Positions 4,029 through 46,273 of a stretch of 64,000 nt of DNA are shown piece by piece. The notes beneath the pieces are model-generated. The model saw only the letters and a program-made list of their open reading frames with translations, was not told the origin of the DNA and did no database searches. How positions within the stretch are numbered: the first letter of the stretch is position 1; each line of letters starts with the position of its first letter. Source of the DNA: Rhodoferax ferrireducens (GTDB taxonomy: Bacteria; Pseudomonadota; Gammaproteobacteria; Burkholderiales; Burkholderiaceae_C); NCBI RefSeq assembly GCF_049302455.1, contig NZ_JBAQMD010000118.1, forward strand, positions 47,031 to 111,030, given 5' to 3'. Both the position numbers and the translations under genes were made by a program.

Positions 4029-4085
4029 TTTTTTGCATCGTTGTAATTTGCAATATATAATAGCGTGCTTTTAGAGGGAACCTCA

Positions 4086-5198: not shown

Positions 5199-5206
5199 GG
5201 TTTGGC

Positions 5207-5713: not shown

Positions 5714-5725
5714 TAGTGACGTTGG

Positions 5726-6358: not shown

Positions 6359-6559
6359 AAATGTGCGTTAGGTTGTTGTTCGTTAAATAAGTGTCCGTTG
6401 ATTCAAAACTGAGCCTATCGGACTGCATTCCATAAGCGTTTTGATTGACCGATAGGGCATAGCCTATCGAACACATCTAGTGTAGTTCTGCTTATAGAAA
6501 GAATCAAGAAAAGCGCTTATATGGCGTTTTTCTTGATTCGATTTTAAAATTGGATCAAC

Positions 6560-8481: not shown

Positions 8482-8507
8482 ATATTTCCAACCAGAGAGC
8501 AACAGAA

Positions 8508-8933: not shown

Positions 8934-9161
8934 GAAATCAGATCGAACGGCGGGATTGGATGTCTTCAAAGCAACGTCAATTTCAAAAATGTATGCACAC
9001 GGCTGGGCGCCATGATCCGCGGTTTTACCAGAGGCGACTGTGAGCAATGCGACCTGATTGCCACTGCGTGAAGACAACATTGCCACCGATAAGCTGAAAG
9101 CCGCTCTCTACAATTTTTGCACGGGCAGCATGTCGCAGCCCTGTTGAAAACGGAGCCGCTG

Positions 9162-9560
9162 ATGCACACTGCCTTAACCCCCGCACCCCAATCCCTCATT
9201 GGCCTCATTCAGGCCCAGCAATCGGCCCTGGGCCTAACCGATCGTGAACTGTGTGCAGCGGTCGGGTTTGAGCGGGAAATCGTTTTGAAGTTGATTAAAG
9301 CTGGCACCATGCACATGCCGCTTAACAGGGTTCCGGCACTTGCGGCAGCGCTCGAACTCGATCCAGTCGAACTGCTCACGGTTGCCCTGCGTGAATCAGA
9401 CCCGGTGCTGCTGCAGGTCATTGAGGAAAAGTTCAATCCCCTCTGCTTGACCTCCACCGAGCAAAACCTGATCAAGCACCTGCGCGAGCTGTCTGGCAAC
9501 ACTGTGGGCGCGCCAATCGTGTTTCCTGGCAACGGCGTCATCGCACTGGTGGCGGTATGA
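9162..9560 (+). CDS. Hypothetical HTH-like protein (paralog A)
   Basis: ORF 9117..9560, with ATG 9162 preferred (ggag 7 nt upstream). It is collinear with the next ORF: LTDRELCAAVGF..IVLKLIKAGTMHMPLNRVPALAAALELDPVELLTVALRESDP against VDLQKALDY..VIAMIKSGGMKLPAGKAVIAAKLLEVDPVFLLAKVVAESDP. Confidence 0.5.
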   Translation: MHTALTPAPQSLIGLIQAQQSALGLTDRELCAAVGFEREIVLKLIKAGTMHMPLNRVPALAAALELDPVELLTVALRESDPVLLQVIEEKFNPLCLTSTEQNLIKHLRELSGNTVGAPIVFPGNGVIALVAV

Positions 9561-10057
9561 GCATGAGCGAAGACAAGGTACCGACCGCATTGAGCTTCCG
9601 ACTGCGTGACCACCGCTTCACTGCACTGCCCGTCAAGGATATTCTCAAAACCCGAATGAAGGATCTGGGCATCAAAAACGTCGATCTACAGAAGGCGCTC
9701 GACTACCCCATGCCCAACGTCATCGCCATGATCAAGTCGGGTGGCATGAAGCTGCCCGCGGGCAAGGCGGTGATTGCTGCCAAGCTGCTTGAGGTCGATC
9801 CTGTGTTTCTGTTGGCCAAGGTCGTTGCAGAAAGCGACCCATCACTGTGGGACGCGATTTCCGAGGTCATGGGCGAGCACCTCATCACCGCCAACGAACT
9901 CGATCTGCTCAAACTGGTGCGAGAAGGGCTTGATGGCCACGATGTGAACCTGGCCGAATCGCCCGAATTCATTCAGGCCATCACACCAGCCCTCAACGCG
10001 ATCGTTGAACGGCAGAACGAATTGGCTCGGGCTGCCCTCAATCGCAACGACGACTGA
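9557..10057 (+). CDS. Hypothetical HTH-like protein (paralog B)
   Basis: 166 aa. An ATGA overlap with paralog A suggests translational coupling. Clear paralogy to the preceding ORF. Confidence 0.55.
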   Translation: MSMSEDKVPTALSFRLRDHRFTALPVKDILKTRMKDLGIKNVDLQKALDYPMPNVIAMIKSGGMKLPAGKAVIAAKLLEVDPVFLLAKVVAESDPSLWDAISEVMGEHLITANELDLLKLVREGLDGHDVNLAESPEFIQAITPALNAIVERQNELARAALNRNDD

Positions 10058-10113
10058 TCCAACCCGATGAACATGAACTTGCCCTCATTGACTTGGCGCT
10101 TTAGGAGCCGCTG

Positions 10114-10629
10114 ATGGATACCGACATTGACGCCGTGTTTCGCACACCCCCGGTTGATGGCATCGAATTTCTTCCAAAAACGCCGGGCGTTTACGCAATG
10201 CTGAACCGAGCCACGCGAATGGTGAACATCGGGCAGGCGGAGAACATCCACAGACGGTGTGTGATGCACCGCAGCCAATTACGCGCCGGCACTGCACCCA
10301 ACCTGCGCATGCGGCGGGACGCGAAGAGGTATGGTGCCGACGCCTATTCTTACTTCACCCTGGAGGAGCTGGTGATTGGCCCGAACACGAAGATCAAGCG
10401 CGAACTGAACAGACTCGAACTTTGGTGGGTGGTGCAGTTCCAAGCCCACGTCGAGCAATTTGGCTATGTCGCCGAAGCGGGTCGTTGTCGCACCAGGGGC
10501 GCGCGGTTTCGGGATCGTGAGCGAAAACTTATGCGCCCCAGCAGTGGAAAATATCAATTGTTGCCGAGGGTAGACCTCTGCGATCCGATCCAACAGGCGC
10601 TTTTGGATAGCTGGGTTCCTGGCAGTTGA
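10114..10629 (+). CDS. GIY-YIG domain protein (putative nuclease)
   Basis: 171 aa. GVYAMLNRATRMVNIGQAENIHRRCVMHRSQL fits the GIY-(10-11 aa)-YIG..R..H spacing, with N replacing the second Y. A downstream LELWWV glutamate is present. Confidence 0.55.
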   Translation: MDTDIDAVFRTPPVDGIEFLPKTPGVYAMLNRATRMVNIGQAENIHRRCVMHRSQLRAGTAPNLRMRRDAKRYGADAYSYFTLEELVIGPNTKIKRELNRLELWWVVQFQAHVEQFGYVAEAGRCRTRGARFRDRERKLMRPSSGKYQLLPRVDLCDPIQQALLDSWVPGS

Positions 10630-10910
10630 CACATGGCCATCAGAGGATTCTGTTGATTGCGAAAGATCACCGGGTGTGCGATTGGCGTGGCATTCAGGAC
10701 GCTCGTGTGAGGGTCAACCTTATGCCCAAAATGCCAATCGGGTTCCGCTGGTGGCCCTCGTTGCCAGATTTTTCCAGGCTGGTGAGAAAGTGCTTATAGA
10801 GCCATGCCCGTGGTGAAATGGGCTTTGCGTTGGGAAATCACCACCTGACCTGAAGCGAACGTAGCGCTTATTCACGAAGAGCAAGTGCAAATTCGCGTCA
10901 AAAGCGATGG

Positions 10911-11300
10911 TCATGGCTGCTTGCCCTGCTGCCGATCGACCTTGCGCTGCTCACGCTCGTAGGCATCCTTTGCGGCGTTGAACTTGACGGCCGTCGGCTC
11001 TGCCATGCGGCTGACCAGTACAACCTCACGCTCTTGCGCGCGGCAGCCTATGTGGCCCAGCGGGTTTTTGAAGACTTCATTGATGCAGTCCTCATGCTTG
11101 CGCTTTGCTTCCTCGTACAGGACCAAGTAAGGCGCAAGCTGCGTCTGCTGGTACTCAAATTCAGCCTTCAGGTCAGCCAAGGTGTCAGGCGGCGCCGGCT
11201 GCTGCACCACCGGCTTTGCCTTCCTCGGCGGCTTGGTTTGGGCTTGCGCCAGCGCACAAGCAAGGCCGAGCGCCACGATCAAAAGTTTCCGTTTCATCAA
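10911..11300 (-). CDS. Secreted hypothetical protein
   Basis: 129 aa with signal peptide MMKRKLLIVALGLACALAQAQ. The mature part is charged and helical-looking. It is the only clear minus-strand gene in the island interior. Confidence 0.55.
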   Translation of the reverse strand: MMKRKLLIVALGLACALAQAQTKPPRKAKPVVQQPAPPDTLADLKAEFEYQQTQLAPYLVLYEEAKRKHEDCINEVFKNPLGHIGCRAQEREVVLVSRMAEPTAVKFNAAKDAYEREQRKVDRQQGKQP

Positions 11301-11558
11301 AGTTCTCCTTAGTCAAAATCACTGGGGCGATGTCCCGCTGGTAACATTTTTTCGACCCGTCTGCCTCTTCGTGCACCAGCTAACCGTCTTGAAGCCGATC
11401 ATCAAATTTGCGCGGAATTTTAAGTGTTGCATAACCTTCACCCGGCGTGGTTCAAGCACGGGAGGACTCCTTCGGGCCGAAAGGCTCCGATAGCCTGTTT
11501 GAGCCGCATAATCCAAAAAAGCGAATCAAGAACAATCTGACAGGGAAAACGCATCGAC

Positions 11559-13101
<1,543 letters not shown>

Positions 13102-13112
<11 letters not shown>

Positions 13113-14328
13113 TGCGACAGTTCTCCCACTTGAGGACTGTCTTGATGCTCTCATCGACTACCGTGGCAAAACGCCGGTCAAGACAGACTCTGGCATCCCA
13201 CTGATTACCGCAAAGGTCATCAAGGGCGGCCGAATTGAAACACCAACCGAGTTCATCGCAAAGGATGCGTACGCCACTTGGATGCGTCGTGGCATTCCCA
13301 AAGAGGGTGATGTCGTCTTGACAGTTGAAGCTCCGCTCGGTGAAGTCGCACAACTGGGTCCAGAAAAGATTGCCCTCGCCCAGCGCGTGGTGACCTTGCG
13401 TGGAAAGTCGGGGCTGCTTGACAGCACCTACCTGCTCTACCTGCTGCAAACGGATGAAATGCAGTCTCAGCTAAAGTCTCGTGCCACTGGCACAACTGTT
13501 CTTGGCATCAAGCAGAGCGAATTGCGAAAGGTGACGCTGACCTTGCCACCGTTTGAGCAGCAATTGGTTGCAGCGGCGACGTTGAAAGCCCTCGACGACC
13601 GCATCACCCTCTTGCGCGAAACCAACGCCACGCTCGAAGCCATCGCCCAGGCGCTGTTCAAGTCGTGGTTTGTCGATTTCGACCCCGTCCGCGCCAAGAT
13701 GGAAGGCCGCGCCCCCGAAGGCATGGATGAGACTACGGCGGCGCTATTTCCACATGGGTTTGAGGAGTCGGAGTTGGGCTTGGTGCCGAGGGGGTGGCGG
13801 ACGGCTCGACTTGACGAGTTCATGGAGTTGGCTTACGGAAAGGCATTGAAGTCCACTGACCGCATTCCAGGTGAAATTCCCGTGTACGGTTCTGGCGGCA
13901 TCACGGGCCACCACAATGAAAGCCTTGTAACTGGCCCATCGATCATCATTGGTCGCAAGGGTACTGTCGGTAGCTTGTATTGGGAAGATCAACCGTTCTT
14001 TGCTATCGACACAGTGTTTTACCTTCGCACAACTATTCCGATGACGTACTGCTTCTACCTGTTGAAGACACTCGGCCTAACGGGGATGAACACCGATGCA
14101 GCGGTGCCAGGCTTAAATCGAGGCAACGTTTATCGATTGACGACACCCTTTCCCGATGCAGCGGTATTAAGTGCGTTTGATGATGTAGTCGGCGTAATTA
14201 GGAAACAAGTTTTCCGCAATAGCCAGCAAGCTCAAACCCTCGCCACCCTGCGCGACACCCTGCTTCCGCGGCTGATCTCGGGGCAGTTGCGTTTATCTGA
14301 TACCTCCATGAAGGATCAAATTTCATGA
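13102..14328 (+). CDS. hsdS: Type I restriction-modification system, specificity subunit S
   Basis: 408 aa, overlapping the hsdM stop. Two target-recognition halves are separated by the conserved central helix ([19 protein letters not shown]). C-terminal conserved helix [19 protein letters not shown]. Confidence 0.9.
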
Positions 14329-14777
14329 ACCTCTGGTGCTATCTCAACCGACTGGGGCTGAATGACTGGATCGCACTATGGGGTGCCTTACTTTCAACAG
14401 TGTTGGCTGTAATCAAAATCATGGATTGGTGGCGCGATCGCGACAGGTTGGAGATTGACTTCTCAAGCACATCCGATGAGTCAGTCGGCAACTCCATCAT
14501 CATTCGCAACCTTTATGCCAAGCCAATCATCATTACTCATTGGGAACTGTTCTTTGCTCACAATCGGCGAGAGTTACGTGAGTGTGAATTGATCGAGTCT
14601 GCCGATTTCGATTTTCACGACCAGACTGTTGGTGCGAATGCATCCATTGTGTGGCGCTTCTGTGACGCACATTACTTCAGCACTTCAGACAAGGTGCTTC
14701 ACGGAAGGTCCATATATTTGAAGCTGTGCATTGCTGGTCGCCAGAAAGTTACCCGCAAACTCTATCCTTACCACTGA
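14325..14777 (+). CDS. Hypothetical membrane-anchored protein embedded in the hsd operon
   Basis: 150 aa with an ATGA overlap to hsdS. One N-terminal TM helix (WIALWGALLSTVLAVIKIM). No recognisable motif. A hand-counted 60-nt line gives about 48% GC. Confidence 0.55.
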   Translation: MNLWCYLNRLGLNDWIALWGALLSTVLAVIKIMDWWRDRDRLEIDFSSTSDESVGNSIIIRNLYAKPIIITHWELFFAHNRRELRECELIESADFDFHDQTVGANASIVWRFCDAHYFSTSDKVLHGRSIYLKLCIAGRQKVTRKLYPYH

Positions 14778-14790
14778 ATCTACCTCCGCC

Positions 14791-15738
14791 ATGAAAAAGC
14801 CACTCAGCAAGTTACAGCGCGTTCCACTGCGCGAAGCCTGGAAGCACGAAGCCAACGACTTCACGCCATGGCTGGCAGAGGCTGAGAATCTCAACGCTCT
14901 TGCAGACGCCCTGGAGTTGGGCAGCCTGGAGTTGGTGGCATCCGAACATTGGGTGGGTGACTTCAAGCTGGACATTCTTTGCACCAACGGTGAAGACCAG
15001 GTGATCATCGAAAACCAGCTTGAGAAGACCAACCATGGCCACTTGGGGCAAATCATCACCTACGCTGCCGGCATCGGGGCCAAGAAGGTGATTTGGGTCG
15101 CAGAGACATTTCGACCAGAACACATTGCTGCACTGGAGTTTTTGAACCAGAACACGACGGAAGACCTGAACTTCTTTGCCGTTGAAGTTGAACTGTGGCG
15201 CATTGGTGATTCGCCTTTCGCGCCCAAGTTCGAGGTGGTGGCCCGACCCAATGAATGGGCCAAATCGGGCCGCGAGCAGGCGCGAGTAGCTTCAACTTCA
15301 ACGCCCACCAAGCAAAGGTTGCTCAAGTTCTGGAGCGCATTGAACGAGTACCTGACCATACACGCTCAGAACATTCGCCCGCAGAAGCCGCAGCCTCAGC
15401 ATTGGCTGAACAACTCAATCGGTCGCGCAGGGTTTGGACTAAATCCAACTGCCAGCCATCGCGACCGTCGCTTGGGCGTCGAGGTCTATATCCACCATGC
15501 CGACTCCAAGCAGCATTATCACGCTCTGCTGGCACAGAAGGAGGCGATCGAAGCCAAGCTCGGATGCAAGTTGGATTGGCAGGAGTTACCCGATGCCCAC
15601 TCATGTCGCATCGCAGCGTGGCGTCACGACTGCCCTTTGGAAGATGAAGTCCGCTGGCCTGATTACATCAAATGGTTCGCTGAGACTCTGGTCAAGATGA
15701 ATGCCGTGTTTAGACCGGCAATTCAAGCCCTCCCATGA
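14791..15738 (+). CDS. DUF4268-like protein (PD-(D/E)xK-like N-terminus), type I R-M associated
   Basis: ORF 14731..15738, with ATG 14791 ([28 protein letters not shown]) preferred. [30 protein letters not shown] is the D..E-x-Q/K nuclease-like core seen in DUF4268 proteins that ride in hsd operons. Its stop overlaps the hsdR start. Confidence 0.6.
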
Positions 15739-18700
15739 CCGAAGATCAGCTCGAACAGGAAGCATTGGGCTGGTTGTCCGATGTGGGCTACACCCATGCC
15801 TTCGGCCCCGACATCGCCCCGGACGGCCCCACGCCCGAGCGCGCCAATTACCATCAGGTTGTCTTGACATTTCGCCTGCGTGAAGCGATCCGCAAGCTCA
15901 ACCCGGCCGTTCCCTCCGCTGCCCGCGAAGACGCCCTGAAGCAGGTGCTGGACCTGGGTATCCCGGCCCTGCTCAGTGCCAACCGGCACTTCCACCGCCT
16001 GCTCGTGGCCGGTGTGTCGGTGCAGTATCAAAAGGACGGCGAAACACGGGGCGACTTTGTGCGCCTGATCGACTGGGCCGCGCCTGCCAAAAACGACTGG
16101 CTCGCGGTGAACCAGTTTTCGATTCGCGGCCCGCACCATACGCGCCGACCCGACATCATCCTGTTCGTCAACGGTCTGCCCCTGGTGTTGCTGGAGTTGA
16201 AGAATCCGGCCGACCTGAACGCCGATGTCTGGAAAGCCTACGACCAGATCCAGACCTACATGGAACAGATCCCCGATGTGTTCCAAACCAACGAGATGCT
16301 GGTCATCTCGGACGGCACCGAGGCGCTGCTGGGTTCGCTCTCCGCAGACCCCGAGCGTTTCATGGCCTGGCGCACCATCGACGGCGTGACGCTGGACCCG
16401 CTGGGTGAGTTCAACGAGCTGCAAACGCTGGTGCGCGGCGTGCTGGCGCCCCAGCATCTGCTGGACTACCTGCGCTACTTTGTGCTGTTTGAAGATGATG
16501 GCGGCATCGTCAAGAAGATTGCCGGCTACCACCAGTTTCACGCGGTACGGCTGGCGATCACACAGGTGCTTGCGGCATCACGTCCCGGTGGCTCGCAAAA
16601 GGGAGGCGTGGTCTGGCACACACAGGGCAGTGGCAAAAGCATCACCATGACCTGTTTTGCTGCCCGCGTGATGCAGGAGCCGGCGATGGAGAACCCCACC
16701 ATCGTCGTCATCACCGACCGCAACGACTTGGACGGTCAGTTATTCGGTGTGTTCAGCTTGGCGCAAGACCTGTTGCGCGAGCAGCCGGTACAGGCACACA
16801 CGCGGCAAGACCTTCGCACATTGCTGGCGAACCGGCCTTCCGGTGGAATTGTGTTTGCCACGATCCAGAAGTTCATGCCGGGTGAGGATGAGGATATGTA
16901 TCCGGTTCTCTCTGACCGGCACAACATCGTGGTGATCGCCGACGAGGCGCACCGTACCCAGTACGGCTTCGAGGCCAAGCTCAAAACACGAAAAATCCCG
17001 CTCGCCCAGGCAGGTCGGGTGCATCTCGCTACCAAGGTCGAAGCGACTGGCAATGGTTTGGCGACGCCGCACCGCGCCGAATTTGCACCCCCGGCTTATG
17101 ACGCTGGCGGGGTGACCGAGCGCTACCAGGTCGGCTATGCCCAGCACCTGCGCGACGCACTGCCGCACGCCACCTTTGTCGCCTTCACCGGCACGCCGGT
17201 CAGCAGTACCGACCGCGACACCCGTGCCGTGTTTGGTGACTATATCCACGTCTATGACATGCAGCAGGCGAAAGAGGACGGTGCCACGGTCGCCATCTAC
17301 TACGAATCCCGCCTGGCCAAACTCAGCCTGAAAGAGGCTGACCTCCCCCTGCTCGACGAGGAAGTGGACGAGCTGGCGGAAGACGATGAAGAGAGCCAGC
17401 AGGCCAGGCTCAAGAGCCGCTGGGCCGCGCTGGAGAAGGTGGTCGGCGCCGAACCCCGCGTCGCCAGCGTGGCCGCCGATCTGGTCGCCCACTTTGAACA
17501 GCGCAACACGGCCCAGACGGGCAAAGCGATGGTGGTGGCGATGAGCCGCGACATCTGCGTGCATCTCTACAACGAGATCGTCAAGCTGCGCCCGGACTGG
17601 CATGACGCAGACCCCGAACGCGGGGCCATCAAGATCGTGATGACTGGCTCGGCCAGTGACAAAGCGCTGTTACGCCCGCACATCTACAGCGCCCAGACAA
17701 AGAAACGGCTGGAGAAGCGATTCAAAGACCCAACCGACCCGTTGCGCATGGTGATCGTGCGCGATATGTGGCTCACCGGCTTTGACGCACCCTGCGTTCA
17801 CACCTTGTACGTGGACAAACCGATGAAAGGCCACAACCTGATGCAGGCCATTGCCCGGGTCAACCGCGTCTTCAAGGACAAGCAGGGCGGCCTGGTGGTG
17901 GACTACATCGGCATCGGCAGCGAGTTGAAAGCCGCCATGAAGGAGTACACGGCCAGCCAGGGTCGTGGGCGCCCCACCGTCGACGCGCACGAGGCGTACA
18001 GTGTGCTGATGGAGAAGATGGACGTGCTACGCGCCATGCTGCACGGCTTTGATTACAGCGGATTTCTCACGGGTGGTCACAAGACGCTGGCGGGTGCAGC
18101 CAATCATGTGCTGGGCCTGAAGACAGGTGAAACCCGGGATGGCAAGAAACGCTTTGCCGACGCGGCTCTGGCGATGAGTCAAGCCTTCACCTTGTGCTGC
18201 ACGCTCGATGAAGCCAAAGCGGTGCGCGAAGAGGTCGCTTTCATGCAGGGTGTCAAGGTCATCCTGACCAAGAAGGAGACCTCGGCCAAGAAGCGCACCG
18301 ACGAGGTCCGTGAGCTGGCCATCCGGCAGATTATCAGCCAGGCAGTGGTCTCCGAGAGCGTGGTGGACATCTTTGACGCGGTGGGCCTGGACAAACCCAA
18401 CATCGGCCTGCTGGATGATGAATTCCTGGCACAGGTGCGCAACCTGCCGGAGAAGAACCTGGCGGTTGAGTTGCTGGAACGCCTGCTCGAAGGCGAGATC
18501 AAGAGCCGGTTTGCCGGCAACGTGGTGCAAAACCGCAAGTTCTCCGAGCTGCTGGCCAACGTCATCACCCGCTACCAGAATCGGTCCATCGAGACCGCGC
18601 AGGTGATGGAGGAACTGGTCGAGATGGCGAAGAAGTTCCGTGATGCGGCAACGCGCGGTGAAACCCTGGGCCTGAGCGAAGACGAGGTGCGCTTCTATGA

Positions 18701-18956
18701 CGCGCTGGCCAACAATGAATCAGCGGTGCGCGAGTTGACTGATGAAACGCTCAAGAAGATCGCCCACGAGCTGACCGAGAACCTGCGTCAGAACCTGAGT
18801 GTGGACTGGTCAGAGCGTGAAAGCGTGCGGGCCAGACTGCGTTTGATGGTCAAGCGCATTCTTCGCAAGTACAAGTACCCGCCCGATTTACAGGATGCGG
18901 CGGTCGAGCTGGTGCTGCAGCAGGCGCAGGTCATGGGGGAGAGTTGGGTGCAATGA
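15735..18956 (+). CDS. hsdR: Type I restriction enzyme, endonuclease/translocase subunit R
   Basis: 1073 aa. N-terminal nuclease region ([19 protein letters not shown]), helicase motif I HTQGSGKS and motif [12 protein letters not shown]-terminal HsdR idiom. Confidence 0.95.
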
Positions 18957-19046
18957 TGCGCCCTGATGACCTTGGCACCCGCAGCTCGGATCAGGTAAGG
19001 TCACGGTCCTCAAGGCCATCTTTTCTCGGCTGACCGGAAGAAGTGC

Positions 19047-21062
19047 TTATAGGTGAACTGTCGGCAACTCGTCATTCAGCGGCCCCATGTCCTCTCTATC
19101 GCGCCTGAACCCGTGTTTCGTTTTCAGAGCGAGTCCAACTCGATACAACCCATGTTCAATGTCGAACGGCGCAATCTCAGGCACAACATAAGTCAAACCA
19201 TTTACTAGGGCTGTCATCTCTGCCTTTGATGTCTCGGTGTAGTGCTCCCGATTTACATCTGCCGGCAACTTGTGCCCAATCACGGTATATCGAATGTAGA
19301 CCCGCAGCATTTCGTCGGCGCTTATCAACTCAGCTATCGGCACGCGGGCAAGCCCATTGTTCGCATTACGCCTGAAGTTGTGAAACACGCGGGTGTTGTC
19401 GCGCGGCATGCCCAAACCTTCCAACATGGCCGAAAACCGCCGGATCGCCTCCTTGGCGTAGCGTGCGGGCGTATTGGTGTAGCTAAGCTCGGCGAACACC
19501 CGCCGAAATCCCTTCTCGCGAAGCCGCCGGCAGTAATCTACAAACCCTAACTCAATGAGGCGTGCGTGAATCGGAACCACTCTGGCGCTTGCCGGCGTCT
19601 TAAGCGACTTGTCCGCAGTCTTGCGGTTAATGTCAATACACCAAACATCATCAATCAGCGCAACGTCAGTTAAATGCAATTGAGCCGCTTCACTGATGCG
19701 GCATCCCGCATAAAGTGCCAACAGGGGCATCCAGTATTCAAATGGTCGCCATGCTTGGTTGCCTTTTGTGACGTGAACACCGTTCCCAGTCTTGAAGTGG
19801 GTCTGCCCAAAAATCCGCGCAAGCTCATCGTCGGTAAAGGAACGCCGCCCTTCTTCTTCGTCATCCGCCTCAGACTTACGCTCAACCTCTATGGCCTCCG
19901 CTCGCGTCAGGCCAAGTTCATCGCGAACAGCACTCGCAAGATCGTCAGCGAGGTGCTTCTTTGTATGCAGCCAAGCAAATAGCCGGAACAACCAAAGCAT
20001 GCGCTCGCGCTGCATGTCGCGAGTCATCACCGGCCAGGCTCTACCGTCGGCCTTAAGCGCTTCGATGGTCTCCTTCATCGTCGCGCGCTTAATTTCCTTA
20101 GGCAAGTGATTTACCTTGCCGGGCAAGGTCTTGAGGGGACCATCTCGAAACGCCCGGATCGTGTCTGAATCAATTTCCGAAAGAGGCAGGTCACCCATGA
20201 ATTCTGCAAACAGCATGATCCCGGCCTTGCGCTGGCGTTGCTCAAATTTACTGGCAAGCGTCTTTGCCAAGCCTTCCTTGTCTGAGCAGTATGCGTCTAC
20301 CGCCTCAGAAAACCGCTTAGATGCCCATTTCCCATGCGCGGCAGGTTTAGCTTCAACCATCGCCTTTCGGGCGGCCTTCGCGTGTTCAATCGCATCCGAT
20401 GAAACGCCATGTGCCAATCGCCTGCGCTGCGTCTCAACATCGGCGACTAATACTTCGAGCCGCTGCACGGGCACCGTCATCACTGTGTCGGGCGCAAACA
20501 GCATCCCCGGGTGCCCCGGCAAATCGAATGCAACAATTTCCACAGATTGAAGACCATTAGCGAGCACCGCCGCCGCTACTCCCTTCACATCACTGAGGGG
20601 CAACATGTCGGTTCGGGTACGCTCAAGCGCACTCACTGGCATGGAATTTGGTTGGGGTATCACAACACCGCCAGACCGCCCAGCCATGGCATCGTTGGGT
20701 TCAAGCTCATCAAGTGCAACGTCGTAACCACGAACTTGTGACAGGCGACAGAAAAGTCTAAGGACGCCACCAGCAGCGGCCCGCAGAAAGTGATCCATGC
20801 CTATGCCAGACAAGCCCACAGCTTCGGCTAGAGGCACCCAACCACCGCTCGAAAGAACCGGCGACCCTTCAACGAGTTTGAGAACGTCAATAGTCATGGG
20901 TACAGACTCTAGCCGCAAAAGCTGGCCTCGCCAGTCTGCCAACAAGACAGCTGCAACCAACTTTGCAATGGCAAGCTCATGAGTTCGGCAGGATTGAATG
21001 AATTCACGACGGCCCGCTGTATCCCGCAGCCGCGCCGGGACGACAAGTCGTGCCCACCACAC
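19047..21062 (-). CDS. Tyrosine-type site-specific integrase (island integrase); native 5' end apparently frameshifted
   Basis: 671-aa ORF opening with GTG. The catalytic-domain residues are spaced as R (TPASARVVPIH), HxxR (HNFRRNA), H (VIGH) and Y (EHYTE). The N-terminus WWARLVVPARLRDTAGRREFIQSCRT matches the arm-type N-terminal domain of tRNA-island integrases. See the finding on the 8-bp duplication. Confidence 0.85.
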   Translation of the reverse strand: MWWARLVVPARLRDTAGRREFIQSCRTHELAIAKLVAAVLLADWRGQLLRLESVPMTIDVLKLVEGSPVLSSGGWVPLAEAVGLSGIGMDHFLRAAAGGVLRLFCRLSQVRGYDVALDELEPNDAMAGRSGGVVIPQPNSMPVSALERTRTDMLPLSDVKGVAAAVLANGLQSVEIVAFDLPGHPGMLFAPDTVMTVPVQRLEVLVADVETQRRRLAHGVSSDAIEHAKAARKAMVEAKPAAHGKWASKRFSEAVDAYCSDKEGLAKTLASKFEQRQRKAGIMLFAEFMGDLPLSEIDSDTIRAFRDGPLKTLPGKVNHLPKEIKRATMKETIEALKADGRAWPVMTRDMQRERMLWLFRLFAWLHTKKHLADDLASAVRDELGLTRAEAIEVERKSEADDEEEGRRSFTDDELARIFGQTHFKTGNGVHVTKGNQAWRPFEYWMPLLALYAGCRISEAAQLHLTDVALIDDVWCIDINRKTADKSLKTPASARVVPIHARLIELGFVDYCRRLREKGFRRVFAELSYTNTPARYAKEAIRRFSAMLEGLGMPRDNTRVFHNFRRNANNGLARVPIAELISADEMLRVYIRYTVIGHKLPADVNREHYTETSKAEMTALVNGLTYVVPEIAPFDIEHGLYRVGLALKTKHGFRRDREDMGPLNDELPTVHL

Positions 21063-39745: not shown

Positions 39746-40777
39746 ATGCACGCTGCCTCACCCTCGAATTCAAGCGCTTTTTCAGCGCGCACCATCGGCA
39801 TCGCCGCCGCCGTGGTCACGGTGCTGGTCTGGACCTCGTTCATCCTGATCGCCCGCGTATCAAGCGACCCGGCGCGCGGCGGCACGCTCACCCCCTTCGA
39901 CCTGGCCTTTTGCCGCATCGTCGGCGCCAGTCTGGTGTTGTTGCCCTGGGGCGCTTGGCTGGTGTACCGCGATCGCGATCGCGGCATCCATCAGTCGTCG
40001 CTGCTGGGCGTGTCGCCTTTGTGCTGGCGCGTCACCGCCACGGTGGGCCTGTTTGGCGGGCTGCTGTATGCGCTGGTGGCCTACAACGGTTTTGTGTTTG
40101 CCCCGGCGGCGCACGCCTCGGTGTTGCTGCCGGGCAGTCTGCCGCTGTGGACGGCGCTGCTGGCGGCGCTGATTTTGCATGACCACATCACGCCGGTGCG
40201 CGCGCTGGGGCTGGGGCTGATCGTTCTGGGCGACCTGCTGGTGGGCGGCAAGAGCCTGATCGGCGCCTTCGACGGCGGCGAGGTCTGGAAGGGCGATCTG
40301 CTGTTCATGCTGGCGGCTTTGACTTGGGCCTGTTACAGCGTGCTGGCGCGGCGCTATCACCTGAACGCGGTGCGCGCCACCATTGCCATCACCGCGTTTG
40401 CGTTTGTGACTTATGTGCCGGTTTACACCGTGCTGCTGCTCGGTGGCTGGGTACAGGGCCAGGTGTTTAGCGCGCCGCTGCGCGAAGTGCTGTTCCAGGC
40501 TGTCTTTCAGGGCTGGGGCTCGGTGGTGGTATCGGGCATCACGTTTACCAAGATGATCCAGCACTTTGGCCCGGTGCGCTCGACCATGATCACGGCGCTG
40601 GTGCCGGGCCTGTCGGCCCTGGGCGCGGTGCTGTTGTTGGGCGAACCGCTGTACTGGAATCTGGCTGCGGGCCTGGTCCTGGTGACGCTGGGGATTTTGT
40701 TTGGGGTGCGGGTGGCGCTACCTGTTGCAATTAAAACAATAGCTTCTCAAGCAGGTAGCACGGGGGCTAGAGGCTGA
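39746..40777 (+). CDS. DMT-superfamily (EamA) permease
   Basis: ORF 39545..40777, whose 5' part is antisense to dacB. ATG 39746 preferred. About 10 TM helices, two-EamA-repeat style. The last 15 codons are supplied by repeat copy 3. Confidence 0.8.
   Translation: MHAASPSNSSAFSARTIGIAAAVVTVLVWTSFILIARVSSDPARGGTLTPFDLAFCRIVGASLVLLPWGAWLVYRDRDRGIHQSSLLGVSPLCWRVTATVGLFGGLLYALVAYNGFVFAPAAHASVLLPGSLPLWTALLAALILHDHITPVRALGLGLIVLGDLLVGGKSLIGAFDGGEVWKGDLLFMLAALTWACYSVLARRYHLNAVRATIAITAFAFVTYVPVYTVLLLGGWVQGQVFSAPLREVLFQAVFQGWGSVVVSGITFTKMIQHFGPVRSTMITALVPGLSALGAVLLLGEPLYWNLAAGLVLVTLGILFGVRVALPVAIKTIASQAGSTGARG
40730..40774 (+). repeat. Dispersed ~45-bp repeat, copy 3 (plus orientation; left flank of the two-gene cassette)
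   Basis: attaaaacaATAGCTtctcaagcaggtagcACGGGGGCTAGAGGC, ending immediately before the DMT stop codon. Confidence 0.7.
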
Positions 40778-43700
40778 TTTTCTTTATAGATTGAGTCGCG
40801 GTCGGCTTTGAGCAGTCCACCACCAGAACTGCGATCTTGTGTCGCAGTTCCTCCGGCACGGTGGCTGCCAGCCGCTGCTGCAACTCTTGTGGTGTTTTGA
40901 CTTTGGCACCGCCGTCAGTTGGGGCTGCTTTCATGTTGCCGGCAAACCAGAAGACCAGGAAGATGCCGTAGCCATCGCTGGCCGGTTCTCTGCAGTATTG
41001 GGCGATCAACTGATTGCCAATCGCTTTCCACACGTCTTTATGCCACTCCCCCTTGGCTTCCATGGGAATGTGGATCAGTCCTGAAGCGACTTCAATATCT
41101 GCCCTCTTTCTGTCAGCGTGGTGGCGCTCGGGCTCTGCCGAAATACTAATCGGAGCAAGACGTGGTTTGAGGGCAGACAACAAGGCGTTACGGCAACGTT
41201 CTTCGGATTTTGGGATGTCACCGGCCCAATATTGGTCATAGTCATCCGTGTCGCTGTCCCGAATCCCACGTATCAGCTGCTTTAGGTGATCAACCGTCAG
41301 AGCGAATAGATCGGCCGCGTTAGCGGGGTTAAGTTTGTTGGCCAGCGTTTGGCAAACTTTTGCGACTGAAGCGGGTTTGAACAGCGCTTTTCGCCGTGTG
41401 ATGCGTTGGTCATACAGAGCGCGGCTGAGCGAGTCGCCCCAGTGTTTCAAGTCTTGCCGCTGCTGCAGAGCCGTCAGGGCATCTAGTGCAGCATCGTCGG
41501 GCTTGCCTGCAAGCGCTGAAATCAGACTTTCAACATAGCGGCCCATCTCCATTTCCGGGGTAACCCAGCCGGACCCCCTTACCCAAGATGGATTTGAACG
41601 AGAACCCAATAGGCCGATCAGAAAGGATTGTGTCGCGACGGGCAGATCGGCCTGCAAGCGGCCTCTTCCTCTGCGTTCATGAACTAGCGCAAACACATGG
41701 CTGATGCGAACCTGGGTTTTCTCAACAAACTGTTGGGTGCGTTCCAGATACAGCTCGGGCGCAAGCAAGACACCGGCCGTCAGCCAGTAAGCGTGTTGTG
41801 CCACATCCATGCCTTTGGTGCTAAGTTTGCTGGCAATTAACGAGAGCTGGGTTTCTCGGGATACGCGACCCATCATCGAGACGATCAACAGCCGCAGGCT
41901 CGGCAACTGCTTCTTGCTTGCTTTGACGGGAAAGTCAGCGATAAGCTTCGGCGAAATTTGACTTGCAACTGCCGCGTAGTCTGCGTCAAGGGCCAGTACC
42001 TGCAAACCATCAACATGTTCTCTTTTTGCGCCGATTTGTTGGCTTATCAAGCGCTGGAGGACGTTGGCCAAAACCGTGGGGCGTTGTGTCAGCAGTTGCT
42101 TGAACCAGACGGGTGTTTCATAGAAGTTGTTGGTCAGACGAAAAGCGACTACCGTTTCCAAAAGGGCTGGCGGCAGATCAAACGCCGCCGCTGGGTCTTC
42201 TGCGTAGCGCAGTTCCATGGCGGCGAGGCAGGGCGCCGCCAGGCTGTAGCGTCGACCTTTGGTGTGGAGATCAACGATATCGGCCGCGGAAGGCAGGTTA
42301 TCGCGGAACAGGCACTGGCGCAAGCCATGCAGGGCAAGGCGAACCCATTCCTTGTCTTGGTTCAGTAACTCAAGCAGGCGAGTTTCAGGATTTTTCTCAT
42401 CTGAACGCCGAAAAAAGTTGAGGTAGGCGTTTGCCACCTCGACCAACGCGCCTAAGTGAGCCGGACCGGTAGCAAAACCGGACAGTGTTTCGCTAAAGAA
42501 TTTGATCGTCTGACGTGACTCCTCGGCGGCACGCTCTTTGTACTTGATCTCATGGTCAATATATTCTTGCTCGGGCTCAAGTGGCGGATAGGGACAGCGA
42601 AGAAAATCCGCGACCCAGACGGCATCGATTGAGTGGTCGGCGGACCAGTTTTCTAGAAGTTCAATTGCAGTGTTTGGCCCCGTTCTTTGATGGGTTAGCT
42701 GAAACGATTCGGTAACCAGCTGGCGCCGCAAGTTCTCATCAATGCTTGCTTCGGCCAGCGACAAATACCAAAGCATGGCGTCGTCAGGCTCAGGCGCGCC
42801 ATAAAGCTTCGCGCGAATCCACCACAAATTACGGAAGACAGTTTCGCTCGTATTGGCTTGCACGGATAAGCCATGTTCAAACAATGCTTTGTAAATAGCG
42901 GGGCGCTCGCCAAGCCATTGCGCTAAGGCGGCCTTGTTTGGTTGATCAAGCGGGCAGTGCTGGTGAGGGCCCAAGCCCAGGGACAGCCAGTTGTAAAGCC
43001 GTCGCACATCAATTCGGTCCCCGTTCTGTGTCACGCCTCGTACCAGCAATTCACCTACGATTTGGGGCGAGCCCATGTGGTCGTGCTGGTTGCTGAGCTG
43101 ATAACCTGTCGAAAACAAGGCATCCAACAAGATTGGAACGTCTTCCGGTGGTGTTTTTTCTTTTGACAGGTCATGCCAAAACTGCCAGTAGGAGCCCAGC
43201 AGTTGCTCAGACTTGGGTTTCCTGAAGTACCGCCATACCTCTGCTGGGGAAATATGGTTGGGATAGAGGACTTGCAGCAGCGTACCCAGAAGCTCGTCTT
43301 CCAAGTCCTCTACGACGTTGCTGTGAACGTCCGCCAGCAGTTGTGTGAGTGTTGACCAGCTGTTGTCTTCTTGCGCATAGGTGGCAAGAATTTCTAATGC
43401 TTCTTTGCGTGAGCCTGACCAATACGTTTTATCGCGGACCACCTGTTCCAACTCTGGGGCCAGGGTTGGCATGTGCTGCCCATGCGCCAAGGCATCCAAT
43501 ACGCAATCGAGCAACGCCAGATGCGGCGAGTTGCGGTCGGCCGATTGCAGCAGGGCTTTGAAATCTCCTGCCATGTCCGCCGTCGCCAAGGCGCCAAAGG
43601 AATGGCTCGCCCAATTCTGGTTGCGAAAATAGGTGTAGCGCGTGGCTTCATCACGCAAGGCGTCGAGTACCTGCAATTTCTCAGTGCGGCTGAAGGCGCG

Positions 43701-44885
43701 CACGTCGCCGTTCAGCACCACGCCCAGCGGGTCGCGCTCAATCAACTCGCGGCGCAGTTCCTCTGACGCTGTCGCGGCCAGCCAGGCGTGCAGGCCGCGC
43801 AGTTCGGGCACGATACCAGCATCCTGGCCCAGCATCAACGCCAGAACACGGCTGGCGGGCAAGCCAGCGTGAATGCGAGTAATTAGGTAGTGCGCGCCCA
43901 GATACTCCGCTACGGTGCGGTGAACGGGGACGAATTCACTACGGCCAGTCCCTCGGAACAGGCTGGTTCGAAGGGCGGCTTGGCAGGCTGCTATATCGGG
44001 CGCGTTTTCGCCTCGGCTGAGGTCCGTCAACGCCAGAGTGCCCGCGTGGGGTTCGCGTGCTGACTGTCGCGCGATGGCTGCACTGCCGGATAGCAGCATG
44101 ACGGCGCTCAGGTAGCCTGCGGCCTGAAGCATTTGTTCAGAAGGCAGGAGGTCATTTTGTTGTGTGGTGCGGTGTTCCTCGTTCTGCTCTTGAACCAGTT
44201 GCTCGCAGGCCAGTGCATATGTTTCGGTTTTGCTGGCAGGCCAGTGGTTCGACCTGGCGGACATGGCCTTGACCAACATGCGCAAGGTTTGCGGGTTGTC
44301 CAGCAAGCCTTCAAGATCACGGTGTTCGGCCTCGCGCATGAACTGGGCTGCGTCTTGCTCATTGGATGGTTGCCAATGGGCAATCAAGGCCTGGGTTTGA
44401 TTGCGGGTCAAAGGGGCGAGATGCAGCTCTAAAAAGTTGTTGTCACCGACCAAGCGCTGCAGTGCTGCGCTGTCAGTGTTGCCGCGCCAATCCGCCTCCC
44501 GGCAGGAAATCCGAAACTTCGGTGTGCCGAGCTGCTGAAGTTTGCTTCGGATCTGCCCGAGCGGGGTTGATCCGGTCGCGTTGCCCGCCGTCATCTCATC
44601 AAGTCCGTCGATGAAAATCAAGGGACTCTGATCCTTTGGCGAACCCAGTTCCACAAAGTCGCGTGCCGTGGTGTAGTAGCCGGCTTCTGCCTCGCTCAGT
44701 GTTTTGAAAGCGTCTGTTTTCCCGGCGCCGGGGTCGGCAATCAATACCCACGCCGGCACGTCACGGTAGTGGCTCAGGGGTTCAGGGTTGGACAAGGTGT
44801 CGTCTTGCATTCGCTTCATGGCGCTGCGCTCAAGCGGCAGGTGGTCTGAAGTTTGGATTTTGAAGGCTTTCACGTCAGACCTCAC
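40767..44885 (-). CDS. Giant NACHT-like STAND NTPase with a C-terminal PD-(D/E)xK-like nuclease module
   Basis: 1372-aa ORF. The GTG at 44885 overlaps the upstream stop (GTGA), with alternative ATGs at 44819 and 44810. Walker A VLIADPGAGKTDAF and NACHT-style Walker B PLIFIDGLDEM. About 1100 aa of Leu/Ala-rich unassigned sequence follows. The C-terminus RADIEVASGLIHIPMEAKGEW (D-x12-ExK) is followed by the hydrophobic strand GYGIFLVFWF. Confidence 0.75.
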   Translation of the reverse strand: MRSDVKAFKIQTSDHLPLERSAMKRMQDDTLSNPEPLSHYRDVPAWVLIADPGAGKTDAFKTLSEAEAGYYTTARDFVELGSPKDQSPLIFIDGLDEMTAGNATGSTPLGQIRSKLQQLGTPKFRISCREADWRGNTDSAALQRLVGDNNFLELHLAPLTRNQTQALIAHWQPSNEQDAAQFMREAEHRDLEGLLDNPQTLRMLVKAMSARSNHWPASKTETYALACEQLVQEQNEEHRTTQQNDLLPSEQMLQAAGYLSAVMLLSGSAAIARQSAREPHAGTLALTDLSRGENAPDIAACQAALRTSLFRGTGRSEFVPVHRTVAEYLGAHYLITRIHAGLPASRVLALMLGQDAGIVPELRGLHAWLAATASEELRRELIERDPLGVVLNGDVRAFSRTEKLQVLDALRDEATRYTYFRNQNWASHSFGALATADMAGDFKALLQSADRNSPHLALLDCVLDALAHGQHMPTLAPELEQVVRDKTYWSGSRKEALEILATYAQEDNSWSTLTQLLADVHSNVVEDLEDELLGTLLQVLYPNHISPAEVWRYFRKPKSEQLLGSYWQFWHDLSKEKTPPEDVPILLDALFSTGYQLSNQHDHMGSPQIVGELLVRGVTQNGDRIDVRRLYNWLSLGLGPHQHCPLDQPNKAALAQWLGERPAIYKALFEHGLSVQANTSETVFRNLWWIRAKLYGAPEPDDAMLWYLSLAEASIDENLRRQLVTESFQLTHQRTGPNTAIELLENWSADHSIDAVWVADFLRCPYPPLEPEQEYIDHEIKYKERAAEESRQTIKFFSETLSGFATGPAHLGALVEVANAYLNFFRRSDEKNPETRLLELLNQDKEWVRLALHGLRQCLFRDNLPSAADIVDLHTKGRRYSLAAPCLAAMELRYAEDPAAAFDLPPALLETVVAFRLTNNFYETPVWFKQLLTQRPTVLANVLQRLISQQIGAKREHVDGLQVLALDADYAAVASQISPKLIADFPVKASKKQLPSLRLLIVSMMGRVSRETQLSLIASKLSTKGMDVAQHAYWLTAGVLLAPELYLERTQQFVEKTQVRISHVFALVHERRGRGRLQADLPVATQSFLIGLLGSRSNPSWVRGSGWVTPEMEMGRYVESLISALAGKPDDAALDALTALQQRQDLKHWGDSLSRALYDQRITRRKALFKPASVAKVCQTLANKLNPANAADLFALTVDHLKQLIRGIRDSDTDDYDQYWAGDIPKSEERCRNALLSALKPRLAPISISAEPERHHADRKRADIEVASGLIHIPMEAKGEWHKDVWKAIGNQLIAQYCREPASDGYGIFLVFWFAGNMKAAPTDGGAKVKTPQELQQRLAATVPEELRHKIAVLVVDCSKPTATQSIKKISL

Positions 44886-46144
44886 TCCAAATCAAGCCAA
44901 TGCGCCAGTGGATACGAGAGAAACTCAGTCAACTCAACGCCACCCGTGCCGACCAGCAAAGGTTTGCCGGCGGGATGCTGTTTTACAAATTCATGAAGGC
45001 CACCGAGCTTGCCGATGGATGGACCACTTTTCACCTCTATCGCGGTCAGCCGGATGGCATCGGCGATCACAAAGTCCACCTCATGCGGGCTTTCGCGCCA
45101 GTAACTGATCTCCTCGTTGCTGGTCGCCGTGTTGCAAAGATGCGCGCCCACCGTGCTTTCAACCAAACGCCCCCAGTAGCTGCGATCAGCCTGCGCCTGG
45201 GCAAATGTATAAGCTGTGGCGCTGGACATCAACGCGGTATTGAGTACGTTGAATTTCGGCGCAGATGCGCGCCGCCGCGCCGCGCCCACATGGTATTTTT
45301 TCAGCCCGGTTAACAGGCCTGCGTTGCCTAGCAGGTCAAGGTAGCCGGCTAGCGTGGTCTCATTCCCGGCATCCTGCAGCTGCCCTTTGACTTTACCCAA
45401 CGCGAGGATTTGGCCCGAGTAGCTGGCCCCCAATTCAAAAAGTTGCTTGAGCAAGGCTGGCTTGTCCACGCGGGTCATTTGCAGAATGTCGGTGTCGATG
45501 CTGGGTTGCACCAAGCTAGCCAGAACATAGTTGCGCCAGCGGCCTTCGTCGCGTATCAATCGGGCGCTACCAGGATAGCCACCGAAATAAATGTATTCAT
45601 TGAGCGTGAAATCAAACGCCTGGTGCATCTCGATAAATGACCAATGCGTTGCGCGCATGAGCTCGTAGCGACCCGCCAGACTTTCGGTCAAGCCCTTTTG
45701 CATCAGCAGCGGAGAACTTCCCAACAAGATCACGTGCATTTCCAGACCTTGGGCACGGTCCGCATCCCACAAACCTTTGACGGTGTCCGACCAACGTGGC
45801 ACTTTCTGGATTTCATCCAGTACAAAAGCGAAAGGCTGCTCAGGGCTGTTGAGTTTGAATGCTGTGCATTGTTGCCGTGCGTTTCGCCAGCTACGTATCA
45901 GCCAGGCGGCATCCCGGGGCGCCCCCTCAACCTCGCTGGTCTGAGACGTGAAGTCCCCGAATGCCGGTGTGCGAGGCTCGGTGGGCTGGTCGACGGCAAG
46001 AAAATAATGCGCTTTTTTTTCCAGAGCCTGACGCACCAAAGTGGTTTTTCCGACTTGCCTGGGACCGGCCACAATCGTGATGAACAGGGGCGGTTCTTGC
46101 AATCGGTCGCGCAACGCCTGAACTTGACTACGATAAAAGGTCAT
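44882..46144 (-). CDS. AAA+ ATPase of the COG1373 type (AAA_14 + DUF4143)
   Basis: 420 aa. Walker A IVAGPRQVGKTTL and Walker B FAFVLDEIQK. The C-terminal EVDFVIADAIRLTAIEVKSG is the D/ExK-like signature of DUF4143 proteins. Confidence 0.85.
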   Translation of the reverse strand: MTFYRSQVQALRDRLQEPPLFITIVAGPRQVGKTTLVRQALEKKAHYFLAVDQPTEPRTPAFGDFTSQTSEVEGAPRDAAWLIRSWRNARQQCTAFKLNSPEQPFAFVLDEIQKVPRWSDTVKGLWDADRAQGLEMHVILLGSSPLLMQKGLTESLAGRYELMRATHWSFIEMHQAFDFTLNEYIYFGGYPGSARLIRDEGRWRNYVLASLVQPSIDTDILQMTRVDKPALLKQLFELGASYSGQILALGKVKGQLQDAGNETTLAGYLDLLGNAGLLTGLKKYHVGAARRRASAPKFNVLNTALMSSATAYTFAQAQADRSYWGRLVESTVGAHLCNTATSNEEISYWRESPHEVDFVIADAIRLTAIEVKSGPSIGKLGGLHEFVKQHPAGKPLLVGTGGVELTEFLSYPLAHWLDLE

Positions 46145-46273
46145 AAATCATACTGAGTAAATTTGCTCAATATGATTACAAACATATTGAATCATGTCAA
46201 ATGCAGCGCTGACAGTGCATGAGCGACGGCACTTGGATTTGAGTGCGCCCCTGTGAATTCTTCCATTTTTGCT

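Follow-up and report, generated by a model that had tools for sequence, protein, structure and literature searches.

On the minus strand of a 64,000-nucleotide stretch of Rhodoferax ferrireducens DNA (contig NZ_JBAQMD010000118.1, positions 47,031 to 111,030; hereinafter the window), two long open reading frames (ORFs) at window positions 44882-46144 (420 aa, ATG start) and 40767-44885 (1372 aa, GTG start) form what we regard, with modest confidence, as a two-gene anti-phage operon, in which an NLR-like nuclease of the EruA family would be made together with a co-translated ATPase-nuclease partner. Both parts are already catalogued, the large protein as the NCBIfam family NF058535 (EruA) and the small one as the PADLOC type PDC-S01, while their tight and conserved coupling under one palindrome is not found described in the literature searched. 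The initial annotation of this DNA, made from its letters alone, had presented the pair as an undescribed defense system matching no named one; that description fails for the two components, each of which separately gives a confident profile match to a catalogued family, and holds, within the literature searched, only for their coupling.

A translationally coupled gene pair

The genes and the domains that they encode are as follows:

44882..46144, minus strand: ATPase gene of the PADLOC PDC-S01 type, an AAA+ ATPase with a C-terminal PD-(D/E)xK motif (ORF, translation, Pfam, PADLOC)
44882..44885, minus strand: GTGA start/stop overlap, the translational coupling junction (sequence; same 4-nt overlap in 25 of 31 related loci)
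40767..44885, minus strand: EruA-family gene, encoding a NACHT module, an α-solenoid and a PD-(D/E)xK-like domain in that order (ORF, translation, NCBIfam NF058535)
43566..44768, minus strand: NACHT NTPase module, about aa 40-440, boundaries approximate (AlphaFold2 model, Foldseek, motifs)
41211..43565, minus strand: all-helical α-solenoid, about aa 441-1225, including the helical bundle that precedes the nuclease core (DSSP, Foldseek)
40770..41210, minus strand: PD-(D/E)xK-like nuclease core, about aa 1226-1372, probably part of Pfam DUF8371/PF28130 (alignment, AlphaFold2 model, Foldseek)

Both ORFs and every motif that the initial annotation had quoted from them are present in the translations, namely GPRQVGKTT, FAFVLDEIQ and EVDFVI...LTAIEVKSG in the 420-aa protein, and ADPGAGKT, LIFIDGLDE and RADIEV...IPMEAKGEW in the 1372-aa protein. 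At 44882-44885 the GTG of the large gene overlaps the TGA of the upstream ATPase gene, and the stop codon of the large gene occupies 40767-40769. The deposited copy of the large protein from Rhodoferax ferrireducens is 100% identical and is annotated as a "NACHT domain-containing protein" of 1368 aa, a length which implies that its start was placed at the next GTG, 12 nt downstream of the overlapping one. The overlapping GTG chosen in the initial annotation is the better supported start, because the start codon overlaps a TGA in the identical register in 25 of the 31 related loci, mostly as ATGA. The 4-nt overlap, in the form of ATGA, GTGA or TTGA, extends to pairs whose proteins share only 32-36% (large) and 51-53% (small) identity with those of the window, and the translational coupling that had been proposed from the sequence of this one junction is thus a retained property of the pair.

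The large protein is a peripheral member of the EruA family

The large protein matches the NCBIfam equivalog model NF058535, "NACHT domain-containing antiphage protein EruA", in a single stretch spanning aa 28-1359 of the protein and positions 9-1318 of the 1318 in the model, with 1002.1 bits (E 5.7e-301) against a cutoff of 1000. Better-scoring distant members of the family, at 1150-1290 bits, share only about 25-30% identity with the window protein, and a stand-alone homolog (locus L026) scores 981 bits. These sequence scores place the window protein in a peripheral clade of EruA. Other resources gave little: Pfam returned only a chance match to DIMCO_N, PHROGs and PADLOC returned no match, the PADLOC models including those for Avs and NLR-like proteins did not match at E≤0.1, and the full-length profile searched against PDB sequences recovered nothing meaningful. 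Likewise, a full-text literature search found no paper on antiphage proteins named EruA or HyoA; the only paper that does name a protein EruA concerns an unrelated E. coli regulator of the SlyA type and was set aside. The DefensePredictor paper mentions NACHT systems and not EruA (PMC13092281).

An N-terminal NACHT module is followed by a long α-solenoid

An AlphaFold2 model of aa 5-1095 (m3cf2c551b01e; mean predicted local distance difference test score, pLDDT, 80.6) places the beginning of the NTPase at about residue 40, with the preceding ~35 residues disordered. Foldseek searches of the PDB with this 1091-aa model gave 34 matches with E≤1e-3. Eukaryotic nucleotide-binding leucine-rich repeat proteins (NLRs) take all of the first 20 places, with E values of 1.7e-8 to 7.5e-6 and a probability of 1.00. 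These include NLRP9 (7wbu), NOD2 (5irm), NLRC4 (4kxf), NLRP3 (8swk) and the NLRP5-type subunits of the cytoplasmic lattice, and are followed by HEAT/ARM-type solenoids, namely importin-13, transportin-3, CRM1 and CAND1. The signature residues of the module are likewise conserved: the Walker A motif (G53-x-G55-K56-T) and a NACHT-type Walker B motif (D93-G-L-D96-E97), the block R125-I-S-C-R-E-A-D-W-R-G135, and the histidine motif of the winged helix (P320-V-H322-R-T-x-x-E327) are all invariant down to ~30% identity, with the Walker A, Walker B and D/ExK residues remaining so in homologs at 25-35% identity. The N-terminal NACHT/STAND NTPase recognized in the initial annotation is upheld by these structural matches and motifs, even though the Pfam NACHT model (PF05729) does not match the window protein and is precomputed on some distant family members only.

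The middle of the protein, previously described as ~1100 residues of apparently helical sequence without a family, is all-helical in the models, with DSSP reporting only helices across about aa 441-1225 in both of them, and can now be described as an α-solenoid. The solenoid region has no sequence match in Pfam or the PDB, and is presumed to be the ligand-sensing region.

The C-terminus as a probable PD-(D/E)xK-like nuclease domain

The initial annotation had proposed a restriction endonuclease-fold core around D1263, E1276 and K1278. An alignment of 16 sequences, reaching down to ~32% identity in this region, shows no variation at E1253, R1261, D1263, P1274, E1276, K1278, W1286, Q1292 and Y1297. 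An AlphaFold2 model of aa 1091-1372 (m1a95450fdc6a; pLDDT 86.7) displays a helical bundle followed by an α-β-β-β-α-β core, the elements of which are assigned by DSSP as a helix at 1228-1246, strands at 1249-1252, 1264-1268 and 1271-1279, a helix at 1288-1297 and a final strand at 1307-1313. D1263 lies immediately before the second strand while E1276 and K1278 fall within the third, as in the core of the PD-(D/E)xK superfamily. Moreover, the Foldseek neighbors of this model in the PDB are nearly all PD-(D/E)xK nucleases, such as Can1, Can2 (probability 0.93), PspGI, Mus81, Cdn1, Hjc, SfsA and NucS, and those in BFVD are phage "restriction endonuclease", RecU and ERCC4 proteins with probabilities of up to 0.99. 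The invariant residues, the topology of the model and its structural neighbors together indicate that the C-terminus very probably adopts the PD-(D/E)xK nuclease fold, and the two models bear out the proposed order of NTPase first and nuclease last. An hmmsearch of the PDB with the C-terminal profile found nothing. When the EruA C-terminus is compared by hhalign with the DUF4143 tail of the upstream ATPase, the D/ExK block alone aligns (E 0.21), which offers no evidence for a specific kinship of the two nuclease modules.

The DUF8371 (PF28130) label, under which Pfam places this region, is precomputed on homologs 57-75% identical to the window protein as well as on C-terminal fragments, and the window protein keeps every motif in the alignment of the region. 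An exhaustive search with the C-terminal profile recovered 3008 clusters, formed at 50% identity, that pass E≤1e-3; 1474 of them also pass E≤1e-30. The full-length carriers are all ~1310-1400 aa long and bear the domain at their very end; by sequence, the family of the EruA C-terminal domain is large and its architecture fixed. There is no evidence for movement of the domain between architectures, the word-indexed search having given only short fragments, several of them from disrupted EruA genes. In three loci (L047, 3861-9065; L048 and L049, 8001-9014) insertion sequences (ISs) or frameshifts break EruA-family genes and leave C-terminal DUF8371 fragments that are called separately, and the same origin is probable for many database entries of short "DUF8371 proteins".

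The upstream ATPase is of the PDC-S01 type

The 420-aa protein combines an AAA_14 domain (aa 22-173, E 7.9e-21) with a DUF4143 domain (aa 218-374, E 8.4e-24), and matches the PADLOC model PDLC04791 (PDC-S01) with an E value of 1.7e-158 over aa 3-416 against positions 2-393 of 395; six more PDC-S01 models in PADLOC match it as well. Its Walker A residues (G27...G32-K33-x-T35), its Walker B acidic pair (D110-E111) and the nuclease motif of its tail (E355-V-D357-F-V ... E370-x-K372) are invariant in 14 homologs down to 51% identity. A sequence search of the PDB with this protein gave nothing meaningful, and no NCBIfam model matching it was found that would mark it as an "EruB". PDC-S01 is one of 145 untested phage defense candidates that were predicted by guilt-by-embedding (bioRxiv 10.1101/2024.01.29.577857). 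It is reported to be a fusion of an ATPase with a PD-(D/E)xK domain and to rank fourth in frequency among the predicted defense genes of prokaryotes, most such candidates awaiting validation (PMC12988326).

The two genes are inherited together

We scanned one genome per species across 185,579 species genomes and obtained, with the patterns used, 46 loci. An ATPase homolog (49-92% identity) lies directly upstream and on the same strand in 35 of these, and this pairing holds in essentially every locus where the EruA homolog is at least about 31% identical and upstream DNA is present, with the paired loci including those of Gemmatimonadaceae, Sulfuritalea, Rhodocyclaceae and Gallionella. In the reverse direction, 25 out of 25 metagenome loci with an ATPase at least 72% identical and at least 200 nt of DNA downstream of it carry EruA as the next gene. 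Thus, the co-conservation that the initial annotation had named as a check is found both ways. Furthermore, the identities of the two proteins are correlated across 31 loci (Pearson 0.92, Spearman 0.83). Beyond this clade the association dissolves, and the ATPase partnership is a clade-specific elaboration of EruA rather than a property of the whole family.

A decayed pair occurs in L079 (4728-6580), where the ATPase is cut after residue 286 and joined to the last ~330 residues of EruA, a junction that implies an internal deletion of ~3.5 kb. Other EruA homologs have other neighbors on their 5′ side. In a Sphingorhabdus-type element (L053 and L054; 3352/3508-5001 and 5001-9011) a Fic-domain gene ends exactly at the start of an eruA scoring 1289 bits, with genes for TIR_2, HEPN_LA2681 and S8 peptidase proteins downstream; here, the same tight junction is seen with a different partner. 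A protein with LysM and NERD (nuclease-related) domains precedes an EruA homolog of the stand-alone clade in L040 (4447-5631). No NCBIfam models match these Fic and NERD-LysM upstream partners.

A promoter-like site and a conserved palindrome precede the pair

The following features lie ahead of the ATPase gene:

46172..46200, minus strand: promoter-like site, TTGACA, a 17-nt spacer and a TG-extended AATCAT (consensus scan, 10 of 12 matches)
46154..46169, no strand assigned: 16-bp operator-like palindrome, window copy TGAGCAAATTTACTCA on the minus strand, 2 nt after the -10 box

The last base of the -10 hexamer lies 28 nt ahead of the ATPase ATG, within a 200-bp upstream region whose GC content is 41.5%. 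In 9 otherwise unalignable upstream regions TTGAC(A) is invariant and a -10 box is kept 17 nt later, and the promoter-like site has an identical offset in most Comamonadaceae loci. In 61 of 62 loci the palindrome sits 20-38 nt ahead of the codon with which the ATPase gene starts. Its family consensus, TGAGTAAATTTACTCA, is a perfect palindrome from which the window copy departs by one mismatch; its variants, such as TGAGTTAATTAACTCA and TGAGTAATATTACTCA, remain palindromic, and the symmetry often continues into its flanks, there with different sequence. Sites with at most two mismatches number only 65 in the 970 kb of sequence searched, and the window holds one against 0.03 expected. Lying over the likely transcription start, the palindrome is suggestive of a putative repressor operator, and the winged-helix region of the ATPase's DUF4143 domain may be the repressor that binds it. 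The palindrome also precedes the stand-alone ATPase relatives in L082 and L083 and never a stand-alone EruA, from which we infer that it belongs to the ATPase gene and that EruA was placed under its control in this clade. The exact 16-mer further occurs in 91 viral contigs of IMG/VR (L088 onward), none of which encodes a DUF4143 or EruA homolog, and these copies were accordingly treated as chance matches of an AT-rich word.

A conserved chromosomal site with persistently different composition

The neighbors of the pair are housekeeping genes, with tsaB and rimI on one side and, on the other, a drug/metabolite transporter (DMT)/EamA-like gene and the gene for PBP4, and no mobile-element genes adjoin it in the window. 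The GC content of the pair is 56.3% as compared to 62-64% in the adjoining genes, and its GC content at third codon positions (GC3) is 0.63-0.64 as compared to 0.80-0.83; the lowest GC of the window is found in the region at 1-7 kb and not in the pair. The same placement, between rimI-tsaB and (DMT)-PBP4, recurs in ~18 loci of Rhodoferax, Polaromonas, Curvibacter, Hylemonella and their relatives, and in every syntenic Comamonadaceae locus (L001-L041) the pair has a lower GC3 than its flanks, the gap being 15-20 points in most and 3-38 overall. The initial annotation had seen here a lower-GC defense islet between housekeeping genes: the composition and the flanks stand, as does the defense-like appearance of the operon, while a recent private insertion is disfavored by the conserved synteny at the tsaB/PBP4 site across many Comamonadaceae genera. 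The distant pairs of Gemmatimonadaceae, Rhodocyclaceae, Gallionella and Sulfuritalea have none of the four genes that flank the pair in the window, which indicates that the pair also moves between genomes as a unit, and into other phyla. A long-lived hotspot at which relatives exchange DNA seems to suit this setting better than does a private insertion of recent date.

Distant stand-alone EruA genes are found flanked by ISs or inside an integrative and conjugative element (ICE) with a TrwC relaxase, and another stand-alone relative lies beside a type IIG restriction-modification (RM) enzyme, an AAA_21 ATPase, an HNH protein and PIN-MazE. At the distal end of the operon in the window, the 3′ end of eruA and that of the convergent DMT/EamA-like transporter ORF share 11 nt (40767-40777). 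A scan for terminators downstream of the operon gave nothing convincing, with no terminator-like hairpin between the two ORFs.

A second lower-GC stretch of foreign appearance (53-58% GC) spans positions 4065-21062 of the window. It begins with a gene for an HTH_3 and Peptidase_M78 (ImmA/IrrE-like) protein (4065-5198) and includes a 479-aa ORF without an assignment (7042-8481) and a complete type I RM system, with hsdM at 11559-13112, hsdS at 13102-14328 and hsdR at 15735-18956, in which a DUF4268 gene (14731-15738) is embedded. It ends with a minus-strand gene (19047-21062) for a 671-aa protein with an N-terminal DUF6538 domain, a candidate integrase.

A proposed mechanism and the alternatives to it

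Ligand-induced oligomerization is the expected logic of STAND NTPases of the bNACHT and Avs families. Drawing on the architecture, family memberships, conserved residues, coupling, co-inheritance and operator displayed by the locus, we infer a defense phenotype, a trigger, a nuclease substrate, an interaction between the proteins and a palindrome-binding protein, and posit that they would be connected as follows. One promoter with a palindromic operator would drive both genes, and EruA would be kept inactive as an ADP-bound monomer until its α-solenoid binds a phage-derived ligand. Nucleotide exchange in the NACHT module would then drive oligomerization, assembling the C-terminal PD-(D/E)xK domains into an active nuclease that cuts DNA, the outcome being either abortive infection or a direct breakdown of the phage DNA. 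The ATPase-nuclease, which in this clade is synthesized along with EruA as its fixed partner, would most likely be a co-effector or a regulator/loader in complex with it, and could possibly also act as an autorepressor by binding the operator via the winged-helix part of DUF4143.

Several observations weigh against the anti-phage operon. The window protein barely clears the EruA cutoff (1002.1 vs. 1000 bits), and among other ATPase-partnered members L017 and L038 fall under it at 982 and 946 bits while L033 reaches 1057, making the equivalog status of the partnered clade, as judged from these scores, marginal. The term "antiphage" for EruA rests on NCBI curation, as a primary description was not found, PDC-S01 is itself an experimentally untested candidate, and no EruA relatives were found in the viral contigs searched. 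The Foldseek matches of the C-terminal model are individually non-significant, with no PDB hit at E≤1e-3 and best E values of 0.03 in the PDB and 0.0024 in BFVD. The pair occupies a single conserved site on the chromosome, and its pace of divergence is close to that of the housekeeping genes on either side, a behavior not typical of mobile defense genes. Finally, EruA has unrelated upstream genes in L026, L034, L035, L040, L044 and L045, and ATPase relatives at ~50% identity stand alone in two metagenome loci; in general, neither EruA nor the ATPase strictly needs the other.

The most specific form of the proposal is a two-component NLR system with the ATPase as an obligate partner that represses the operon via the palindrome and complexes with or loads EruA, infection then relieving the repression and triggering oligomerization and the firing of the nuclease. 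We put this forward tentatively, as a possibility that may well prove wrong. If true, it would supply the first functional context for PDC-S01, reported to be among the most abundant predicted defense genes in prokaryotes, and a case of a bacterial NLR that is regulated by an accessory protein and carries its effector at the C-terminus.

The last of the observations above feeds directly into a competing account, that EruA and PDC-S01 are two independent single-gene defense systems, co-transferred as neighbors in a mini defense island with a common transcript and no functional interaction. The stand-alone EruA genes, which include those of L050-L052 besides the six just named, and the stand-alone ATPases of L082 and L085 are what it would predict, as are the single-gene status of PDC-S01 in PADLOC (PMC12988326) and the attachment of the palindrome to the ATPase gene alone. 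It leaves unaccounted for the 4-nt overlap kept in 25 of 31 loci across deep divergence, the strict adjacency in both directions within the clade, and the joint presence of the two genes in Gemmatimonadaceae, Rhodocyclaceae and Gallionella, outside the Comamonadaceae tsaB/PBP4 site; moreover, with zero intergenic space, EruA in the window has no promoter or operator of its own. We consider mere neighborhood of this kind doubtful.

The order of the genes, with an upstream gene followed by a translationally coupled nuclease gene, also invites comparison with toxin-antitoxin or addiction modules. Here, the EruA nuclease would be the toxin, and the ATPase, made first and in stoichiometric amounts, would restrain it and repress the operon, the module being selfish and defense a side effect. 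An autoregulation-type putative operator overlapping the promoter and a persistently foreign composition agree with such a module, as does the far greater conservation of the upstream protein (73-92% identity within Comamonadaceae as compared to 56-71% for EruA). However, EruA genes commonly stand alone and are apparently tolerated in the absence of the ATPase, the ATPase retains its own invariant nuclease motif, which would be unexpected in a mere antitoxin, and the large NLR-like sensor architecture points to ligand-regulated activation, rendering an addiction module unlikely.

Least probable of all is a non-defensive cellular role, such as DNA repair or STAND-type signaling, with vertical inheritance in Comamonadaceae: the rimI/tsaB to PBP4 site common to ~18 loci of several genera, a divergence similar to or lower than that of the neighboring housekeeping genes and the absence of adjoining mobile-element genes in the window speak for it, and are set against a patchy distribution (46 loci among the 185,579 species genomes with the patterns used), the depressed GC3 (by 3-38 points) in every syntenic locus, relatives in ICEs, IS clusters and defense islands, the existence of IS-disrupted pseudogene copies, and the curation of the family by NCBI as antiphage.

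The anti-phage operon that we favor offers nothing categorically new, since both of its building blocks are already catalogued. Its ATPase clade, being locked to an NCBI-curated antiphage NLR-like protein, does give an experimental handle on PDC-S01, and the nearly invariant 16-bp palindrome is a ready candidate operator. With the nuclease at the C-terminal end of a NACHT-solenoid chain, in reverse of the usual order, how oligomerization activates a distal effector becomes a mechanistic question.

Comparison with known systems

The 420-aa protein agrees with PDC-S01 from end to end, sharing its AAA_14 and DUF4143 architecture, with the D/ExK residues invariant. However, PDC-S01 is defined and modeled as a single-gene system (PADLOC; PMC12988326; bioRxiv 10.1101/2024.01.29.577857), whereas the ATPase gene of the window is the first of a conserved, coupled two-gene operon in which the EruA gene is, within the clade, always the next.

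For the large protein, eukaryotic NLRs (NLRP9, NOD2, NLRC4, NLRP3) provide the best structural matches to the N-terminal 1091 residues. They differ from it in that the identity is 12-14%, and the window protein has no leucine-rich repeats, with an α-solenoid in their place, no N-terminal PYD or CARD, and a nuclease at the C-terminus. The C-terminal model in turn has its core topology and the placement of the D...ExK residues in common with Can1, Can2 and Cdn1, which are effector nucleases of defense systems, and with nucleases of the Hjc/NucS type, although these matches are weak (E 0.03-0.1, TM 0.2-0.3 on query length) and no sequence similarity to a PDB chain accompanies them.

HyoA (NCBIfam NF058534), another NACHT antiphage family, is of similar size (1430 model positions), and relatives of the window protein give weak matches to it that cover most of their length and take in the C-terminus. 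The window protein is not a member, giving no match at E≤0.1, and its relatives reach 90-195 bits where the cutoff is 1200. The bacterial NLR-like proteins of the bNACHT and Avs/AVAST families likewise unite, within a single large protein, a STAND/NACHT NTPase with a sensor of the repeat type and an effector of the nuclease type. Their effector is usually N-terminal and their sensor C-terminal, as PMC13092281 also states, whereas the window protein has its NACHT module at the extreme N-terminus and its nuclease-like domain at the C-terminus.

The closest relationship remains that to the EruA family itself, with which the window protein shares a length of ~1340-1370 aa, the N-terminal NACHT module, the long helical middle and a putative C-terminal DUF8371 domain. 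The higher-scoring members of that family stand alone or have other upstream partners, in contrast to the clade of the window protein, in which alone EruA is coupled to a DUF4143 ATPase and preceded by the palindrome.

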